A stretch of 64,000 nt of DNA from Phapecoctavirus DIJ07P1, in sequence record OZ035743.1; one strand, written 5' to 3'. A program made the translations under genes and the position numbers. Under the pieces are notes generated by a model that was not told the DNA's origin, searched no databases, and was given only the letters and a program-made list of their open reading frames with translations. Below are positions 2,074 through 54,840 of this stretch, piece by piece. Each line of letters opens with the position of its first letter. The stretch's first letter is position 1.

Positions 2074-3840
2074 ATGTTTCCAATTCCAATATTTACTATT
2101 ATGACCAGCACTGGTGTCGTTCCTCTGCCAGCAGGTATTGTTAAAAAAGTAATCACTTTAGATTACCCAGATAATGCTGGTAATTCTAACAGCAGTTTAG
2201 CAATTTTGCTTAATGATGGTAGATTGTTTACTCAAGGCGCAAACCTTTTTGGTGAGATTGCAGATGGAACTCGTAGTGCACGATTCAATAATTTCCACTT
2301 AGCTTCTACTGTAGTAGCGGATGTGTTTACCGCAGATCGTTGTTTTGTTATTAAAACTAACAGTGGGGGATGGCAATATTCAGGATTGACAGCAGGGTTG
2401 GTAGGATCTATAGCAGCAGGTGGTACGGATGCATGTGTAACTACCTGGACCAGCTTTCCATCTGTAATAACAGGGACTATTTCTTTAGCCAATCTTAAAG
2501 AGGTTAAAGGAGGGTATAACAATACTCTCTGGTTAATGAATAGTGGTGTTCTTTATGGATCGGGTCAAAACACAGTGGGTAGTTTAGGTGCAAGCACTAC
2601 TAACGAAGTTTCTACTCCTCGTCAGATAACAAGCGCAGCAGTTGCTTTTGATGCAGGTTACAACCAATGCTCTTATGTCAACAATGTGGGAACCTTGCGT
2701 GTTTGTGGAGCTAGTAAAGGTTTAGCAGGTAATAATAACACAACAACAGCTTTTGTCAATGCCACAATATCCGCTACTGAAACAGTGTATGTCAAAGATT
2801 ACATCAATACAGTTTCCCAGACAATAGTTGTAGGAGATACCTCCGGTGGCACGGGTACAGTAAACTACTTATATGTTAGATCTAATACAGAAACAACCTA
2901 CACTAAACTGGATACCTTTGCAGCAGGTTTCTCAACATGGAAGTTTCCACCAAGCCGCCACTCTTTTTTCGTTGGGATCAATAATTCCTTGTGGGCTATT
3001 GGTAAGAACTACACTGCAAACTTAGGTTTGGGGTATGATTCTGCGAGCGGAGATCCACTCCAAGTGGGAAAACCAGTTAAACCTGAAGGAGTGGGTTCTT
3101 GGGATATAAACAAGCTCACAAGCGTTCATACGCTGAATATGGATGTTACTAACCAATTAGGTTATCAAGGAACCTTTTTCGTTTATAATGGAGATATGTA
3201 TTATTCCGGTATTTGGAAAGATGGGAAAGCCTCGTATCTGTTCAATAGTGGTCTAAACTATAATAAATTCACACCAATAGCAAGCTCCGTGATTACGGGC
3301 GATATTCTGGCAACTGGCTTAACTACAGATTCTTTAGGAATTTGTATTGTAGGTGGAACTAAACAGTTGACACATTCTGTTAGCCCAGAAGGAGGTAAAC
3401 TTTTCAATATTAAATACACTTCTTCTGCCCCTGCAAACATGACAATATCATCTACTGGTTTAATGACTTTCCATGCAGAAGGTGGTTTTGATGCAGGTAT
3501 GACAGCCTTAAACGCTGAAGGAACAACTTTATCAGATACCTCTGGAGGATATGCTTCAACATTGAGTGTTTACACCCCTAGCTTATCTGCGATGGATGTA
3601 GGAACAACACAAACAATGGTAGCAGAAATAACGCCAACAGGAGCAGCAAGCTTACCTGGTATGGTTGTTGAGTATTTCTCTAATGACCCTACGGTAGCAA
3701 CAGTTGACCCCGTTACAGGCGTTATTACAGCGGTTGCTGATGGAGGTTGTCGTATCGGTTGTAGAGCAACTTATCAAGGTGTGGTAACTGCCGAAGATAG
3801 TTCTTATCTCACAGTGAATGCTGTGGTGATTATGATTTGA
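2074..3840 (+). CDS. Tail fibre / structural protein with C-terminal Ig-like (Big_2-like) region
   Basis: 588-aa ORF, Gly/Thr/Ser/Asn-rich; C-terminal segment resembles bacterial Ig-like domain; RBS GGAGGG upstream. Confidence 0.65.
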   Translation: MFPIPIFTIMTSTGVVPLPAGIVKKVITLDYPDNAGNSNSSLAILLNDGRLFTQGANLFGEIADGTRSARFNNFHLASTVVADVFTADRCFVIKTNSGGWQYSGLTAGLVGSIAAGGTDACVTTWTSFPSVITGTISLANLKEVKGGYNNTLWLMNSGVLYGSGQNTVGSLGASTTNEVSTPRQITSAAVAFDAGYNQCSYVNNVGTLRVCGASKGLAGNNNTTTAFVNATISATETVYVKDYINTVSQTIVVGDTSGGTGTVNYLYVRSNTETTYTKLDTFAAGFSTWKFPPSRHSFFVGINNSLWAIGKNYTANLGLGYDSASGDPLQVGKPVKPEGVGSWDINKLTSVHTLNMDVTNQLGYQGTFFVYNGDMYYSGIWKDGKASYLFNSGLNYNKFTPIASSVITGDILATGLTTDSLGICIVGGTKQLTHSVSPEGGKLFNIKYTSSAPANMTISSTGLMTFHAEGGFDAGMTALNAEGTTLSDTSGGYASTLSVYTPSLSAMDVGTTQTMVAEITPTGAASLPGMVVEYFSNDPTVATVDPVTGVITAVADGGCRIGCRATYQGVVTAEDSSYLTVNAVVIMI

Positions 3841-3912
3841 CGCAAGAAACTATTCCGGCGGATTGGGGATCGAAGTTCATTACAGGTTTGAAATATTACG
3901 ACTAATAAAAAA

Positions 3913-3932
3913 GGGAACCCGCAAAGGTTCCC
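3913..3932. terminator. Bidirectional terminator between convergent genes
   Basis: gggaacc-cgcaaa-ggttccc hairpin flanked by A-run upstream and T-run downstream. Confidence 0.7.
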
Positions 3933-3968
3933 TTTTCTTTTATAAAAACTCTTTATAAATCAATAAGA

Positions 3969-4856
3969 TCAGAACGGAATATCATCGTCGAAGTCCATTG
4001 GAGGTTCTTCTTGATTACTTGGAGTTGGTTCTGGTTGTGGTTCAGGTTTCTTAACTTCTTTCTTCTCTTCTTTCTTAGGCTGTTCTGCGGAACCACGAAT
4101 GGCAGCAGCAACTTTATCAGACAGAGCCAGAACTTTACGAGCAGAGTCGATCAGATCTTCTACAGATACAGTCTTAATGGTATGGTCTTTACAAGCATTG
4201 AGGATAGCGTGACCAACAGATGCCCCAAGATCATAATCATTAATATCAACACCACGAGATTCAGCAATTTCCGATTTCAGTGTGACAGTTGCAGATTGAA
4301 CAACCCCAGCGATATCGAAAGCATCGCCTTTAACACCATTACGAATCAGTTCCAGTGCACCATTTACTGCGTGACCAGTTTCCAGACCTACAGTATCACG
4401 TTTTTTATAGGACTGCTTAGGAGCAGCATCGTTGGAACCTTTATTACCAGAAGATTTGTTAGACTTCTGAACACCATCGGTAGACAATACTGTAATACGA
4501 GATTTTTTAGTATTGTAGTAAGTTTTACCGCCTTTATTATCAACGCGATCAATATCAATACTTACTTCTACACCTTTTTCAATAGTGATCCAATTATCAC
4601 CTTCTTTGACTTGCAGGTTTTCATAACCTTCTTTCAGTTCAATGTCACCAAGAGAAATCCAAACACCTTTCTCATCTGGTTTAGCACCTTTCTCTTTCAG
4701 AACAAGAGAGGCTCGGTGAGTTGAAACAATCGTTTTTCCTTCCCAATGAAAAGTTTTAGGTTCAGCGAATTTATCCAGTTTAACGTAGTCTACGATACCA
4801 GTTGCATAAGTTACGGTTTTGCCTTTACGATCAGTTTCAGTATTAATTACGGACAT
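3969..4856 (-). CDS. ssb: Single-stranded DNA-binding protein
   Basis: 295 aa; C-terminus PMDFDDDIPF matches the acidic SSB tail (DDDIPF); Gly/Lys-rich linker before tail. Confidence 0.75.
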   Translation of the reverse strand: MSVINTETDRKGKTVTYATGIVDYVKLDKFAEPKTFHWEGKTIVSTHRASLVLKEKGAKPDEKGVWISLGDIELKEGYENLQVKEGDNWITIEKGVEVSIDIDRVDNKGGKTYYNTKKSRITVLSTDGVQKSNKSSGNKGSNDAAPKQSYKKRDTVGLETGHAVNGALELIRNGVKGDAFDIAGVVQSATVTLKSEIAESRGVDINDYDLGASVGHAILNACKDHTIKTVSVEDLIDSARKVLALSDKVAAAIRGSAEQPKKEEKKEVKKPEPQPEPTPSNQEEPPMDFDDDIPF

Positions 4857-4872
4857 TATTATCTCCTCTACA

Positions 4873-45298: not shown

Positions 45299-45353
45299 TA
45301 TTTTAACTTTTTTCATTTTTAGAACAAAGGTGTCACTTTGTAGCACAGAAATA

Positions 45354-45380
45354 AGGCTCCTACAGCACCGTAGAGAGCCT
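45354..45380 (+). terminator. Rho-independent terminator
   Basis: aggctc-ctacagcaccgtagag-agcct hairpin followed by gttattttgt. Confidence 0.65.
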
Positions 45381-45540
45381 GTTATTTTGTCCTATACAAA
45401 CCCTTGTCTTTTTCAGTTTGCATCACTAGGATTCGATCTGAGTGGGTTCCTGAAGGTTTACCAATAAGATTAAAGGTTATATCAAATTCCCACTATCTTT
45501 TATCTCAAAAATCCCTCAAATTATTTAAACTTTTTAAGAA

Positions 45541-45717
45541 TTTACAAAAATGAAAGTACAAAAGCAAAATTTAAAGTTTAGGAAAATTATCTTAAAATGT
45601 TAGATACAAAACAAAACTCAAAAGTCAAGGAAAATTTTAAAAATTTTGCGCGCCCACAGTATTTAAAGTTTTTTTGCTTTTACAAAAATGAAAGTACAAA
45701 AGCAAAATTTAAAGTTT
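45541..45717. repeat. 40-bp direct repeat pair in AT-rich intergenic region
   Basis: tttacaaaaatgaaagtacaaaagcaaaatttaaagttta at 45541..45580 and 45678..45717. Confidence 0.8.
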
Positions 45718-45740
45718 ACAAAAATTTTTATGCAGGTGAA

Positions 45741-45846
45741 AATGAGAAGAGTTCTCATATGGAAATGCAAATGATAATGATTCGCATTTAAGTTTATAAA
45801 TGAGATTGATTCTTATTTAATAAGGTAAATGACAATCATTCTCATT
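45741..45846. promoter_or_regulatory. Four tandem ~19-bp palindromes resembling the Fur box
   Basis: aatgagaagagttctcat; aatgataatgattcgcatt; aatgagattgattcttatt; aatgacaatcattctcatt at ~28-bp spacing; last copy matches GATAATGATAATCATTATC at 14/16 aligned positions. Confidence 0.45.
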
Positions 45847-46106
45847 TAGAGAATGACGCGCAGGGGCGGTGTTTGTCTCGCGCTCCCGTGTCCCCTCGCC
45901 ATGTAATAAGAATAACAGATCCAGCCAGGAAAGCAAGCGATTATTTTATCTTTACATTTCTTTACAAATATATAGCACCCAGCCTACCGGCGATCAACCT
46001 TCCAACCAGTGCCCCCTGGTATGTTAGCCCCGCCTTTACGCCGTGGGGTGGCGCTTCCTCTTCTGTATGTAAAACAGTATAAGCCCGATCCCTGGGCTTG
46101 TCAAGA

Positions 46107-52627: not shown

Positions 52628-52686
52628 CTTGCAATAATTTTCAGACCGTGTATATTTAATTCATAGGGCGGCGGGAATAGTTCCCT
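52628..52686 (+). promoter_or_regulatory. Promoter-leader cassette 16 (degenerate)
   Basis: TTGCAA...TATATT...catagGGCGGCGGGAATAGTTCCC. Confidence 0.55.
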
Positions 52687-52828: not shown

Positions 52829-52966
52829 GGTGCGTACTATGAAAACAACAGACATTATCAAAGAGATCGCCCTTGCCGCTGACGTTGAGATCGAGGAAGT
52901 GATCGCGCTCAACCTTACAGAAAACGATCTACTCAATCTATGAAGCGTTATAATTGACAACAAAAC

Positions 52967-52993
52967 AAGGGCGCACCAAGCGCCCTTTCTTTT
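52967..52993 (+). terminator. Rho-independent terminator (copy 2, near-identical to 51723..51749)
   Basis: agggcgcaccaagcgccct followed by ttcttttt. Confidence 0.75.
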
Positions 52994-52994
52994 T

Positions 52995-54495
52995 GCCCGA
53001 ACAATGTTGATAGCTTTCGCCTATGAAAAACCGACACAGAACAAAACTGAATAAATCGCGGTATCGAGCTAATCAACCAGCAAACGAATAACCATACCTC
53101 CCAGGGTTACAGGCTGTTAGAGAGCCATTTAGAGCGGTTAAAATCGATCAACAACCAACAACAAACCATCAAAAACACCCTTTTACCTCCTTTCTAGTGC
53201 AATGATAACCATTATCATCTACCCATGATTATCTATGCAATATAAGCGCATAATTATAATGTTGATAATAGTTCGCAACAACTAACCAACAAACAACATA
53301 AAACAATAAGCAAACTAATCATAATCAAAGGAATAATAGCAAGATGATTGATAACGACAAACAATCAAACCATGATGAATACTAAGCAAGATAACGATAA
53401 CACGACAAAACAACCAACTAACGAACAATAACAAACGAAACCATTAAAATAATAACTATTAGCAAAATAGTGCATGAATGAAATCATTACAAAACGAATC
53501 ATTCACAGAGTCATCATTAGCACGCTATGCCGGACACATAGCGAGCTAATAATAAGCCAACTACACCCCAACAATCATAACCATCGGTGACGGTTATTTC
53601 TTGTTACTGCGTAGCTTGCAATAATTGCAAGCGTAATGACGCTTACACTTATTGCGCTGGCTTATTATTAGCATTATATGTAATTACCAAGATCATAACA
53701 TTAGCGCAATAACAATAGTCATTGTGATAATTACAAGATGAGATCATTAGCAAGATGAATAATTGCACGTAGCAACATGAGCGAATAGCGACAGGTTGCA
53801 TAGTGTGCACATAGTGTATAAACATACAAGAAAATAAAGGCTAATCTTTTGGGGGCGAATACTATCGCGTAGCGATATGTTGAGCACCTTCTCTTAAACG
53901 TAAATAAAATCAGAAAATTCTTGATTTATTTTGGCTTTTATGTTAATAAACGTTTAAATAATAATCATTCTCATATAAATAATAGTCTGCTTGTCATGAG
54001 CGGCATTAGTTGACATTGTTCCGTCATATGATGAAGTTGCCAAGCCATTGATAAATAAGTGTTTGTGTGATTTATAATCAGGTGGCCCACCTTGTCGCTA
54101 TGTTGGCATGAGCCTTGCATAAGTCATTGAATACGAATGATAATTATTCTCATTCGCATGATATTTGGGAATTGTCGCTGCGTGGACCTGACGGCCCGAA
54201 AATTCGCGTTAAGCACTTCTTACGTATGCGCCATGATTTTTGCCATATGATATTGATTCTATTAGATATTCTTGCCATTATTGCCATGAAACAGGGTGTG
54301 TCGAAATAATTGCTCCCCGTAGATATTTTGGGTTACTTTTTATACAAGAGTGGGGTGTCAAAAATAATCGGTATATATGGGATAATTGATAGGAATCCCC
54401 TATGATAATTCGATTGTAATTCCCTAAGATTGATCGTATGATGTTGGTGATTGATGATTGCCATGAAAGATGGCTAACGATGAGAGGAGATTGTC
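52995..54495. other. A/C-rich, strand-asymmetric non-coding region (~1.5 kb)
   Basis: No convincing ORF; plus strand dominated by A and C with recurring CAAGATGA / GATAACGA / ATCATTAGC words. Confidence 0.6.
53957..54157. promoter_or_regulatory. Fur-box-like palindromes (second locus)
   Basis: aataataatcattctcat (53957..53974) and cgaatgataattattctcattcg (54135..54157); same motif family as 45741..45846. Confidence 0.45.
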
Positions 54496-54840
54496 ATGCA
54501 AGAGAGTAAAAATGTTCCGTTGAGTAGTTTACGTCTAATGAAGTTTTACAAAGCTTGGCTTGCTGGTGAGGTAGAAGGTCACACAACGAGTGGTTTGTGC
54601 ATATGTTTGATTAAGTATGTAGAGGGAACATATCCTGATAAACTGTTACCTCGTCTACAACAGGAGATGAAATCACAGTTTATTAGTGCAGGATTGGATT
54701 ACAATTTCCCGTTTAATGAAGGTGGTTATGAAGAATACACCTTCGAACATAAAAAACATATTTGCCATAAAAACAAACATCGTATACAATGGGTGTTAGA
54801 TAGAATTCAGGATTATGAAGGAGAGAAAAATGACAAATAG
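54496..54840 (+). CDS. Paralogue family X member 1
   Basis: 114 aa; shares FYKAWL, TSGLC.CL, AGLDYN.PFN, R.QWV.DRI blocks with 54830..55198 and 60255..60569. Confidence 0.65.
   Translation: MQESKNVPLSSLRLMKFYKAWLAGEVEGHTTSGLCICLIKYVEGTYPDKLLPRLQQEMKSQFISAGLDYNFPFNEGGYEEYTFEHKKHICHKNKHRIQWVLDRIQDYEGEKNDK

Follow-up and report, generated by a model that had tools for sequence, protein, structure and literature searches.

Results

A composite gene-free gap

The window, by which we mean the whole 64-kb stretch of DNA that was analysed, comes from a Phapecoctavirus, a coliphage of the phAPEC8/ESCO13 type. Its plus-strand gene block ends at an intrinsic terminator, and the next gene begins with the ATG at 54496. 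The initial annotation had found no credible gene in the 1.5 kb between them (52995-54495), and this held, since the gap contains only ORFs of 41-64 aa. When six gap ORFs were compared with Pfam and PHROGs, there was no Pfam match above the cut-off and no PHROG match, the sole result being a sub-threshold zinc-ribbon match, and the longest ORF of the A/C-rich region is broken by a 17-nt indel in a relative. A scan for tRNA and tmRNA genes found none. Careful annotations (phAPEC8, Schickermooser) show no genes here, and some GenBank records place 3-9 'hypothetical proteins' in the gap.

The same annotation had treated the 1.5 kb as one element and had not recognised the physical ends of the genome within it. 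The gap is instead a composite of several adjacent elements, genome termini included: right-terminal non-coding DNA (52995-53882), a 329-bp direct terminal repeat (53883-54211) and a left-terminal promoter leader (54212-54495). The features that we distinguish, from left to right, are:

52967-52994, plus strand: intrinsic terminator of the upstream plus-strand gene block, found in a terminator scan (8-bp GC-rich hairpin followed by TTTCTTTTT)
52996-53200, no strand assigned: Block A, ~205 nt of conserved motifs (GATAGC..CTAT, GAATAAATCGCGGTATCGAGCTAATC, TTAGAGCGGTTAAAATCGAT)
53201-53278, no strand assigned: Box1 (53201-53218), inverted repeat TATGCA..GCATA (53234-53252) and Box2 (53261-53278)
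53277-53500, no strand assigned: the most A/C-rich, G-poor spacer (A+C 0.74 on the plus strand, 71% A+T)
53455-53766, plus strand: recurring word ATTAGC(A), an iteron-like array around the folded core, with copies at 53458, 53516, 53667, 53700 and 53746
53519-53674, minus strand: conserved folded core, ~155 nt, from RNAalifold on both strands
53851-53887, plus strand: left cut-site module, consisting of GGGGGCGAA (53851-53859), the hairpin TATCGC-GTA-GCGATA (53863-53877) and TGTTG/AGCAC (53878-53887; here and below the stroke marks the repeat boundary)
53883-54211, no strand assigned: direct terminal repeat, 329 bp, single copy in the window
53921-53974, plus strand: candidate rightward sigma-70 promoter inside the repeat (TTGATT 53921-53926, 17-nt spacer, TAATAA 53944-53949), with Box3 (53957-53974)
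54136-54171, minus strand: Box4 (54136-54153) and an overlapping candidate leftward promoter (TTCCCA 54171-54166, 17-nt spacer, AATAAT 54148-54143)
54205-54216, plus strand: right cut-site motif CGCGTTA/AGCAC, the right end of the genome being 54211
54212-54495, plus strand: unique leader at the left terminus, ahead of the first gene (ATG 54496)

The gap contains the ends of a linear genome

The first 329 bases of the Schickermooser record equal its last 329 at 100% identity and map to window positions 53883-54211. The repeat also stands at both record ends in BI-EHEC, WPEC1/2/4/6 and Mt1B1_P17, and at least 10 independent linear GenBank records start or end precisely at 53883 or 54211, among them Ro121lw, BI-EHEC, 3A1/10C3/118_SA_NWU, WPEC1/2/4/6 and Mt1B1_P17. 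By the evidence of these deposited records, the genome has short direct-terminal-repeat ends of the kind found at a T7-type junction, and the ends are defined, not permuted. The repeat appears only once in the window because the window is a joined or permuted assembly. Terminal repeats of 328-342 bp have already been reported for Phapecoctavirus/Stephanstirmvirinae (PMC6563267, PMC12695924, PMC12210895), with a 328-bp repeat described by Korf et al. (PMC6563267) and a 342-bp repeat called by PhageTerm in BME3 (PMC12210895).

Both boundaries of the repeat carry GTTR/AGCAC preceded by a G-run, and this boundary motif is common to all lineages. The left end of the genome starts at 53883, and the right cut-site motif is kept in every lineage that extends to that position. 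In other lineages, 1-3 tandem G-run/hairpin modules precede the left boundary, with stems that differ in sequence and keep their pairing. These 1-3 G-run/hairpin/TGTTGAGCAC modules to the left of the cut, together with the ATTAGCA words, are candidate terminase recognition sites.

The right-terminal segment is conserved beyond the genus

Conservation in related phages had been set as a test by the initial annotation, and it proved to be strong: about 70 Phapecoctavirus records are 93-100% identical. Homology reaches Justusliebigvirus, FKP3 and Tr1, and the first ~330 nt extend to the Vequintavirinae phage Av-05, which has the same layout and the same skew. This conservation shows that the region is functional. 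The right-terminal segment, ~0.9 kb of which the A/C-rich 600 bp are a part, is kept throughout Stephanstirmvirinae and is better conserved than the neighbouring genes. In L005 the upstream genes are replaced and the non-coding DNA is retained, with an identity of 92-98% in the A/C-rich part versus 52-74% in the repeat and leader.

The non-coding region is bordered on the left by the terminator at 52967-52994, whose hairpin and plus-strand T-run are kept in all relatives, Av-05 included; the T-run that this hairpin (52967-52987) has on the minus strand is not kept outside Phapecoctavirus. Block A is kept even in Av-05, the distance from terminator to first box is 198-207 nt in all lineages, and RNAalifold found 0 conserved pairs across 52996-53300. 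At the other end of the gap, conservation of the leader falls well short of that of the A/C-rich part. The leader has homology to the DNA upstream of phAPEC8_0018 and Schickermooser_00001, contains GGGKTGTC-AAATAAT twice (54294-54310 and 54352-54368), and includes the ribosome-binding site of the first gene (54482-54498, ATG included).

When remoter homologues were sought by DNA pattern in viral, metagenome and genome collections, Stephanstirmvirinae-like contigs were all that came back apart from chance matches. Candidates for distant homologues that were discarded comprise L013, L016, L017, L019, L021, L022, L025, L026 and L028-L033. A protein-based locus search of IMG/VR returned a single locus, and its match was a paralogue.

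The compositional skew is confined to the first 600 bp

The gap had been singled out for an A/C skew over its whole 1.5 kb. The skew is real for ~600 bp (52995-53600) and does not extend to the remainder, the right part of which is G/T-rich. On the plus strand, 52995-53600 has an A+C fraction of 0.66 (A 0.43, C 0.23, G 0.13, T 0.21), the maximum among all 600-bp windows of the 64 kb (z = 4.2), and A+C rises to 0.74 at 53277-53500. The fraction across the entire 1.5 kb is just 0.54 (z = 1.1), and 53883-54495 is skewed in the opposite direction (A+C 0.43-0.46). Regions of the phage with minus-strand genes have a plus-strand A+C of 0.60-0.63, so the A/C-richness matches the phage's own "minus-sense" composition.

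The recurring short words were confirmed as a local property, with 3 of the 4 window copies of CAAGATGA, 2 of 4 of GATAACGA and 2 of 3 of ATCATTAGC falling in the gap. K-mer enrichment also stood up against controls from first-order Markov simulations (182 repeated 7-mers versus 121±14; 76 repeated 8-mers versus 39.6±9.1). The spacer at 53277-53500 contains CAAC/AACAA words and a 128-bp periodic CAACWAAC repeat; its sequence differs among genera, its G-poor composition and its length are retained, and little structure is predicted in it. Besides its direct copies, the word ATTAGC(A) occurs in inverted orientation at 53545 and at 53840; its array also includes a tandem repeat of 16 bp (53726-53764). 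Similar ATTAGCA copies stand beside the core in FKP3, Tr1, L014, L020 and L024.

A covarying element folds on the minus strand

The best-conserved piece of the right-terminal segment is the core, a three-way junction with heavy covariation on the minus strand. A 15-bp closing helix, P1 (53658-53672 with 53545-53559), encloses two arms: P2-P3 (7+7 bp), with the invariant palindrome CTTGCAATAATTGCAAG at 53615-53631, and P4-P5 (5+9 bp), in which P5 is the hairpin at 53577-53597. These are followed by a 3' hairpin, P6, within 53521-53545. Compensatory changes occur in 15 of the 51 base pairs, and P2 covaries. In the alignment fitted to the model, from which the pair counts were taken, 99.3% of 1012 cells are paired; none of 500 shuffles scored as high, and slid controls were 24-52% paired. 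The 64 wobble cells read as G·U on the minus strand without exception, and none are G·U on the plus strand, indicating that it is the minus strand that folds. With both RNA and DNA parameters the minus strand is the more stable in every lineage. Folding z-scores of the core are -8.8 to -9.9.

A covariance model of the core found one copy in the window (167.8 bits) and no homologue in Av-05. The whole window gave 0 matches to Rfam 15 at the gathering threshold, and at E≤10 the interval 52900-54600 gave chance-level matches only (at most 22.7 bits, E of at least 0.6). Compensatory changes of this kind are those by which structured non-coding RNAs are recognised, and they fit a folded single-stranded DNA equally well. 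One element of the long non-coding RNA envisaged by the initial annotation has sequence support: a covarying folded element exists, on the strand opposite to the A/C-rich one.

When the minus strand was scanned upstream of the core for sigma-70 promoters, none lay at a conserved position; the leftward promoters that overlap Box1 and Box4 are candidates only. Since, in addition, the minus-strand T-run is not kept outside Phapecoctavirus, an RNA from this strand has no defined start or end. A literature search found no usable transcriptome of these phages. The hairpin at 53577-53597 was also considered as a plus-strand intrinsic terminator and rejected: the T-run that follows it (ATTTCTT) is confined to Phapecoctavirus and Justusliebigvirus and is missing from FKP3, Tr1, L012, L020 and L024, and in several lineages the hairpin has A·C mismatches on the plus strand, which are G·U on the minus strand. 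A blastn search of 52995-53882 against 5,426 E. coli genomes for host mimicry gave no match.

Fur-box-like palindromes accompany candidate promoters

Box1 and Box2 are Fur-box-like palindromes on either side of a short inverted repeat, and the order Box1, inverted repeat, Box2 is kept in Justusliebigvirus, FKP3, Tr1, L020 and Av-05. A putative leftward promoter read from the sequence (TTGCAT-N18-GATAAT) would overlap Box1. The rightward promoter inside the repeat is a candidate by consensus match, and its -35 element, 17-nt spacing and downstream box are kept in every lineage examined. The leftward promoter at Box4 is a weak candidate; in 5 of 11 lineages a similar one precedes the core by ~470-500 nt.

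Fur boxes in E. coli have a 19-bp consensus (GATAATGATAATCATTATC) and a 7-1-7 core (TGATAATnATTATCA). The 15-bp Fur core was matched with 0-2 mismatches at 53203, 53263, 53959 and 54138, and the whole window has nine matches versus 2.2±1.3 expected. The consensus of 51 phage boxes is AATGATAATCATTCTCATT, and several copies are 0-1 mismatch from the 15-bp core. The full 19-bp Fur consensus at ≤3 mismatches had no match in the window, and an exact degenerate box search across loci returned none. Like E. coli Fur boxes, the phage boxes overlap or directly follow candidate promoters; unlike them, their right half favours TCTCA over TATCA. Box arrays with exact 29-bp spacing, which is not typical of host Fur sites, occur at 45743-45844. 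The binder of the phage boxes could equally be a phage protein, and our literature search found no paper tying Fur boxes to phage early promoters. The protein-binding array that had been suggested for this region has sequence support in operator-like palindromic boxes and in repeated words set in arrays, all of which are putative sites.

Discussion

A proposed role in genome end processing

We tentatively interpret the gap as the control region at the termini, or concatemer junction, of a linear phage genome that ends in short direct terminal repeats, a reading to which we give slightly less than even confidence. Within it, our best reading of the right-terminal region is a cis-acting end-processing region that serves terminase recognition and repeat copying. 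The terminase would recognise the array of module and repeats that lies immediately within the right end, would cut or nick at both GTTR/AGCAC sites, and would then package leftward, so that the left end, with its promoter, would enter the next cell first; this direction is suggested by analogy and by gene layout. The minus-strand fold would act in cis on end processing. It might mark the place on single-stranded minus DNA where rightward synthesis is primed or loaded, by which the repeat would be copied; alternatively, it might lie within a transcript that runs leftward from a promoter in the repeat or close to it, under the control of a box. Gating of the region's promoters would fall to the Fur-box-like palindromes. 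A precedent exists in T7-type repeat duplication, which proceeds by nicking and strand-displacement or primase-initiated synthesis with a hairpin intermediate (PMC4281155). The core itself may have no role in packaging, because terminase sites are normally read as duplex DNA, for which covariation is not needed.

Alternative readings

The fold could instead belong to a free-standing non-coding RNA gene, in which the minus strand of ~53000-53700 yields a G/U-rich RNA whose core acts in trans as a regulator, protein sponge or anti-defence RNA, its position at the genome end being incidental. Covariation with many G·U pairs, some of them invariant, and conserved unpaired junction nucleotides are what functional RNAs display, and the minus-sense composition, the candidate box-controlled leftward promoters and the very low folding z-scores are consistent with such a gene. 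We nevertheless regard it as unlikely: it lacks a promoter at a conserved position, a conserved minus-strand terminator and an Rfam family, blastn found no similarity or complementarity to E. coli DNA, and the core sits among DNA-type palindromes and repeated words that suggest a DNA-level assembly site. A replication origin, also proposed in the initial annotation, would have the words and boxes bind an initiator, the A+T-rich spacer melt, and the skew change at ~53650-53850 mark divergent synthesis. The local switch of GC and AT skew, seen also in Av-05, the 71% A+T of 53277-53500, the iteron-like ATTAGCA words and the palindromes all suit this idea, and the folded strand could be a single-strand priming site. 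In T7, a secondary origin is located just inside the right terminal repeat. As a classical origin, however, the region did not hold up, and we consider this explanation quite improbable. It has no DnaA boxes (TTWTNCACA) and no adjacent initiator gene, and the skew change is a local island of 0.6-0.9 kb in a plus-strand gene block, with no genome-scale switch in the 64 kb examined and with the same sign as ordinary minus-strand genes of the phage. In rV5, skew changes were reported to track transcription direction only (PMC3606486).

Two further explanations look to the A/C-rich strand itself or to no element at all. An untranslated plus-strand RNA, unstructured, C-rich and G-poor, might load Rho and halt read-through ahead of the packaging signals and repeat; alternatively, a promoter between Box1 and Box2 might give rise to an A/C-rich RNA with ARN/CAA-type motifs that sequesters Hfq or S1. 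The excess of C over G (0.23 versus 0.13 over 600 nt), the little structure predicted in the spacer, the G-poor composition kept despite sequence divergence between genera, and the ATTTCTT after the 53577-53597 hairpin in Phapecoctavirus and Justusliebigvirus would suit a plus-strand function, to which we give only a slim chance. A strong terminator stands directly upstream, inspection of the alignments showed no convincing plus-strand promoter between Box1 and Box2, the T-run is lost in FKP3, Tr1, L012, L020 and L024, the hairpin has A·C mismatches on the plus strand, and the 92-98% identity with L005 exceeds what a purely compositional role needs. Least credible is that the gap is functionless spacer, its skew a mutational by-product, or that it holds unannotated small genes. 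The 'hypothetical proteins' of some GenBank records could be such genes, as could a 23-codon minus-strand ORF (53107-53178) whose GTG is preceded, at a distance of six nt, by AAGGAGGT, a perfect Shine-Dalgarno sequence. This mini-ORF is stop-truncated in L005 and Schickermooser and absent in arall, the gap ORFs have no family matches, and the longest is interrupted by the 17-nt indel; a mere spacer is at odds with the covariation and with a non-coding segment better conserved than nearby genes.

Implications

Returning to end processing, a more speculative proposal, which we think rather improbable, is that the ~155-nt element represents a new class of phage nucleic-acid signal, a structured RNA cofactor or single-strand priming element needed for repeat copying and genome resolution or packaging in large terminase-dependent myoviruses, and that genome-end promoters are wired to host Fur via box arrays. 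If the wiring were true, a virulent gut phage would respond to iron in both its early expression and its end processing, and the Fur-like boxes raise a testable link between gut iron availability and phage early expression. The covariation support for the folded element is unusually good for something without a described family, and if it is needed for end processing it would show short-repeat regeneration outside the T7 group.

Among coliphages isolated for therapeutic use, Phapecoctavirus and its relatives are some of the most frequent. Their assemblies are usually opened at an arbitrary point that conceals the genome ends, and the gap is left blank or filled with spurious 'hypothetical proteins'. 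Mapped termini, a cut-site motif and end-proximal promoters provide a rational start coordinate for these genomes; the same placement gives a testable map of packaging and repeat-copying signals for this group and marks what engineering of these phages must keep.

Comparison with known systems

The genome map of rV5 draws a 'non-coding' box (Kropinski et al. 2013, PMC3606486), which is the same kind of gene-free stretch in a related phage. The available parts of PMC3606486, PMC6563267, PMC12695924 and PMC12210895 give no description of the internal anatomy, the folded element, the boundary motif or the boxes.

In T7/T3 and in our phage alike, each junction holds one copy of a short direct terminal repeat, the non-coding DNA immediately left of it has repeats and inverted repeats, early promoters lie at the left end, and the repeat would be copied by nicking and strand-displacement or primed synthesis. 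The T7/T3 right end comprises the terminal repeat, pac sequences just to its left and the phiOR promoter, which has a secondary origin; a hairpin intermediate is also part of this system. The phage studied here differs in being a 150-kb myovirus. We know of no phage RNA polymerase for it, and T7-style transcription-driven processing therefore cannot be assumed. Its conserved multi-helix fold with strand-specific wobbles is not a simple palindrome, and its GTTR/AGCAC and G-run/hairpin modules, known here from sequence, have no known T7 counterpart. Work on the T7/T3 concatemer junction by Chung and Hinkle (1990) and by Molineux (2006) is cited in PMC4281155.

Lambda cos resembles the phage region in having a cut site with short repeated sites on one side, the side that would go in first. 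The two differ in that cos (cosQ-cosN-cosB) has 12-nt cohesive ends, as opposed to a 329-bp repeat, and in that its R sites are bound by protein as duplex DNA and have no covarying hairpins.

The pRNA of phi29 offers a structural parallel. Its 5'/3'-end helix closes a three-way junction, and complementary loops join it into a ring; the phi29 DNA is protein-primed and has no terminal repeat. Like the core, it is structured, lies beside a genome end, and has an end-closing helix, a three-way junction and two stem-loop arms. We rejected a phi29-type packaging RNA: by eye, the loop of P3 does not complement that of P5 (in the window, for example, they read UCAUUA and ACC), the phage genome has terminal repeats in place of terminal protein ends, and there is no sequence or Rfam similarity.

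Finally, single-strand initiation and primosome sites (the G4-type ssi, the phiX174 n' site, the ColE1 pas and RSF1010 ssiA/B) are 40-140 nt long and consist of two or three simple hairpins. The core has no sequence similarity to them; both are hairpin clusters on one DNA strand, and ssi sites work only on one strand as the template for primer synthesis. The orientation of the core, in which a folded minus strand would direct rightward synthesis through the repeat, fits a role in repeat copying, as for ssi-type signals.

Gene content of the non-coding region

The gap at 52995-54495 is 94-99.8% identical to ~70 records of Phapecoctavirus phages, a genus in the subfamily Stephanstirmvirinae that includes phAPEC8, ESCO13 and Schickermooser. 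Careful annotations leave the homologous stretch empty, with a terminator on one side and phAPEC8_0018 / Schickermooser_00001 as the next gene on the other. From the terminator hairpin (52967-52994) to the ATG at 54496, only ORFs of 41-64 aa were found, for which no family matches were detected and which are interrupted by indels in relatives, confirming the initial annotation of the region as non-coding. The 3-9 short 'hypothetical proteins' placed across the homologous gene-free region in the GenBank records of ETEC-TG, EP57, WPEC1/2/4/6, KMB37 and Eryne are probably over-annotation, since family matches and reading-frame conservation are absent. On the minus strand, an ORF of 23 codons at 53107-53178 (GTG start, MFLMVCCWLLIDFNRSKWLSNSL) is preceded at a distance of six nt by a perfect AAGGAGGT. 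A stop codon shortens this ORF in the divergent IMG/VR relative L005 and in Schickermooser, and phage arall lacks a counterpart, which makes a conserved gene improbable. An unexplained "non-coding" box was already drawn in the rV5 paper (PMC3606486).

Genome ends and anatomy of the gap

A terminal repeat is already known for this genus: Korf et al. gave its length in Schickermooser as 328 bp (PMC6563267), a later paper describes direct terminal repeats at the ends of Stephanstirmvirinae genomes (PMC12695924), and the repeat of BME3 is 342 bp (PMC12210895). The first 329 bases of the Schickermooser record equal the last 329 with 100% identity and map to 53883-54211. At least ten further linear records, each deposited independently, begin or end exactly at 53883 or 54211 (Ro121lw, BI-EHEC, three O177 phages, WPEC1/2/4/6, Mt1B1_P17). 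Both repeat boundaries share one short motif, GTTR|AGCAC, where the bar marks the genome end (left ATGTTG|AGCAC, right CGCGTTA|AGCAC), and the right-boundary form is kept in every lineage reaching that position. Judged from these record ends and the shared motif, the genome ends fall inside the gap, which therefore consists of right-terminal DNA, the terminal repeat and a left-terminal leader. The position of the genome ends accounts for the gap, and the repeat is single in the window because the assembly is joined or permuted. In Klebsiella phage FKP3, identical boxes lie 500 bp apart near the record end (3764/4264 and 3934/4434), which suggests that this assembly holds the terminal-repeat region twice in tandem. 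We hold the following anatomy with high confidence.

Features of the gap from left to right, with verified coordinates
52967-52994, + strand: terminator of the upstream + strand genes
52995-53882: right-terminal non-coding DNA
52996-53200: Block A, ~205 nt of conserved motifs, conserved structure absent
53201-53218 and 53261-53278: Box1 and Box2, Fur-box-like palindromes with a short inverted repeat between them
53277-53500: extreme A/C-rich spacer; sequence drifts between genera, length and G-poor composition are kept
53519-53674, minus strand: conserved folded core, with ATTAGCA words and a 16-bp tandem repeat around it
ending at the left cut site (53883): left cut-site module of G-run, hairpin and TGTTG|AGCAC
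53883-54211: terminal repeat, single copy here
inside the repeat, + strand: candidate rightward sigma-70 promoter (TTGATT, 17-nt spacer, TAATAA)
53957-53974: Box3, downstream of the candidate promoter in the repeat
54136-54153: Box4, near the right repeat boundary
54212-54495: left-terminal leader of the first gene

Other lineages carry one to three cut-site modules, whose stems differ fully in sequence and keep their pairing, and the -35 element, spacing and third-box position of the candidate promoter are conserved in all lineages. The leader repeats the motif GGG(G)TGTGTCGAAATAAT / GGGGTGTCAAAAATAAT at 54294-54310 and 54352-54368, kept as GGGGGTGTCAAAAATAA-CGGGTATA in L005, arall and the related loci L012 and L020. 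The phAPEC8 'PHIRE promoters' (GTAGGGCGGCAATGGTGCCGCC) are GC-rich hairpins ~15-25 nt upstream of small early-gene start codons (window 52663-52685; 556-575, 937-956, 1787-1806 and 3202-3221 in related locus L001), and their appearance is closer to that of RNA stem-loops in 5' leaders than to that of promoters.

Comparison with related phages, proposed initially as a check, showed that conservation extends to other genera. In L005 the upstream genes are unrelated, yet homology in the non-coding DNA sets in at the terminator and continues from there, with 92-98% identity in the A/C-rich part versus 52-74% in the repeat and leader. Homology at ~70-80% identity reaches Justusliebigvirus, Klebsiella phage FKP3 and Citrobacter phage Tr1, and even in Av-05 (Vequintavirinae) the terminator, Block A, Box1 and Box2 are recognisable, starting a 1.9-kb gene-free stretch that changes from A/C-rich to G/T-rich as in the gap. 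After this shared start, the long-range inverted repeats of the Av-05 stretch (2940-4858) are different ones, namely GCGACACAATAACGC..GCGTTATTGTGTCGC and GTTAACAATTTTGCAA..TTGCAAAATTGTTAAC. TTATTGTGTC occurs there four or five times, and the stretch may contain an analogous, non-homologous folded element.

The minus strand of the core folds

Both strands of a 13-sequence multi-genus alignment were folded. The + strand consensus has 43 pairs, 0 G·U and several A·C mismatches, and the minus strand consensus has 48 pairs, none broken, with many G·U. By inspection, the invariant palindrome CTTGCAANNNTTGCAAG has three "loop" bases that change in step with a heptamer upstream, and this covariation defines helix P2 and thereby a longer P2-P3 arm. 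The refined minus-strand model comprises a 15-bp closing helix P1, arms P2-P3 and P4-P5, and a 3' hairpin P6. Across a 20-sequence model-guided alignment, which leans toward the model but whose counts agree with those from MAFFT only, its 51 pairs are formed in 99.3% of 1,012 cells, with changes on both sides in 15 pairs. None of 500 shuffles reached the observed values, and partner-slid controls were 24-52% paired. Each of the 64 G·U cells, found in ten pairs, would be mispaired as A·C on the + strand. Folding z-scores were -8.8 to -9.9, and the minus strand was more stable in every lineage with RNA and DNA parameters alike. These comparisons show a conserved structure with the minus strand as the folding strand, as RNA or as single-stranded DNA. 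A covariance model of the core detected it once in the window and not at all in Av-05, and nothing similar was found in Rfam.

Base composition and alternative explanations

The A/C skew initially assigned to one 1.5-kb element is real for ~600 bp (52995-53600), where A+C of 0.66 is the maximum among all 600-bp windows of the 64 kb (z 4.2), peaking at 0.74 in 53277-53500, but not for the full gap (0.54, z 1.1), which is G/T-rich at 53883-54495 and contains several elements. The recurring words quoted with that claim are indeed mostly located in the gap, and repeated 7- and 8-mers are ~four standard deviations over first-order Markov simulations. Genes at 3969-38381 are on the minus strand and the + strand there is likewise A/C-rich (0.60-0.63), so 52995-53600 has the phage's "minus-sense" composition, more extreme, within a block of + strand genes. 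This composition agrees with the minus strand as the folding strand, and would fit a region that is often transcribed leftward, or one whose minus strand is often exposed in single-stranded form as DNA.

Given that fold, a free-standing, trans-acting RNA gene is conceivable, though we consider it unlikely. The replication origin offered in the initial annotation is a poor prospect, as DnaA boxes were not found in the region and the skew island is local. An A/C-rich + strand RNA, serving as a Rho-loading zone or protein sponge, would also draw on the skew, but both the strand on which covariation occurs and the strong terminator upstream contradict it, and we judge it very unlikely. Conservation and covariation both contradict the idea that the gap is spacer DNA with no function or harbours hidden small genes, and we give that idea almost no weight.

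Fur-like boxes

The consensus of 51 boxes, taken from Box1-Box4 and homologous positions in L034 (Av-05), L008 (FKP3), L005 and related loci L006, L009, L012, L014, L020 and L024, is AATGATAATCATTCTCATT, which closely resembles the core of the E. coli Fur box. In phage arall, the promoter within the terminal repeat is directly followed by a perfect TGATAATCATTATCA. Box matches in the window number nine versus 2.2±1.3 expected, a number reached in 0 of 100 shuffles. The putative binder would be host Fur or a phage protein; a link of Fur boxes to phage early promoters was not found in the searched literature. In a second large gene-free region (45300-46100), four Fur-box-like palindromes are spaced exactly 29 bp apart (45743, 45772, 45801, 45830), and a direct repeat of ~40 bp (AATTTACAAAAATGAAAGTACAAAAGCAAAATTTAAAGTTT) has its copies near 45540 and 45676.

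Proposed mechanism and comparison with known systems

In T7-type concatemers, the single repeat has to be copied via nicking plus strand-displacement or primed synthesis, a process with a known hairpin intermediate (PMC4281155). By this analogy we tentatively propose, at somewhat less than even probability overall, that the gap is a cis-acting end-processing region. The modules and repeats next to the right end, on its inner side, would serve as recognition sites for terminase, which would nick or cut at both GTTR|AGCAC sites and package leftward, and the left end, carrying the promoter and small early genes, would go first into the next host. The folded minus strand is suitably oriented and could initiate synthesis that runs rightward across the repeat. 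Alternatively, a box-controlled promoter could give rise to a leftward transcript of which the folded minus strand is the structured part. One candidate leftward promoter (54171-54143) overlaps Box4, and another overlaps Box1. Neither a minus-strand promoter at a conserved position nor a conserved minus-strand terminator was found, and both results count against the proposed mechanism.

Descriptions of the boundary motif, the G-run/hairpin modules, the Fur-like box arrays and, most notably, the covarying minus-strand fold were not found in the searched literature. With T7 the gap shares a known general kind, a non-coding junction region adjoining a short terminal repeat. The core is like phi29 packaging RNA in outline only (a closing helix and three-way junction near a genome end), failing the loop complementarity that defines that family, and is like single-strand initiation signals only in principle. 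The genome ends are the ordinary part of this region, and the folded element and boxes are worth an experiment.
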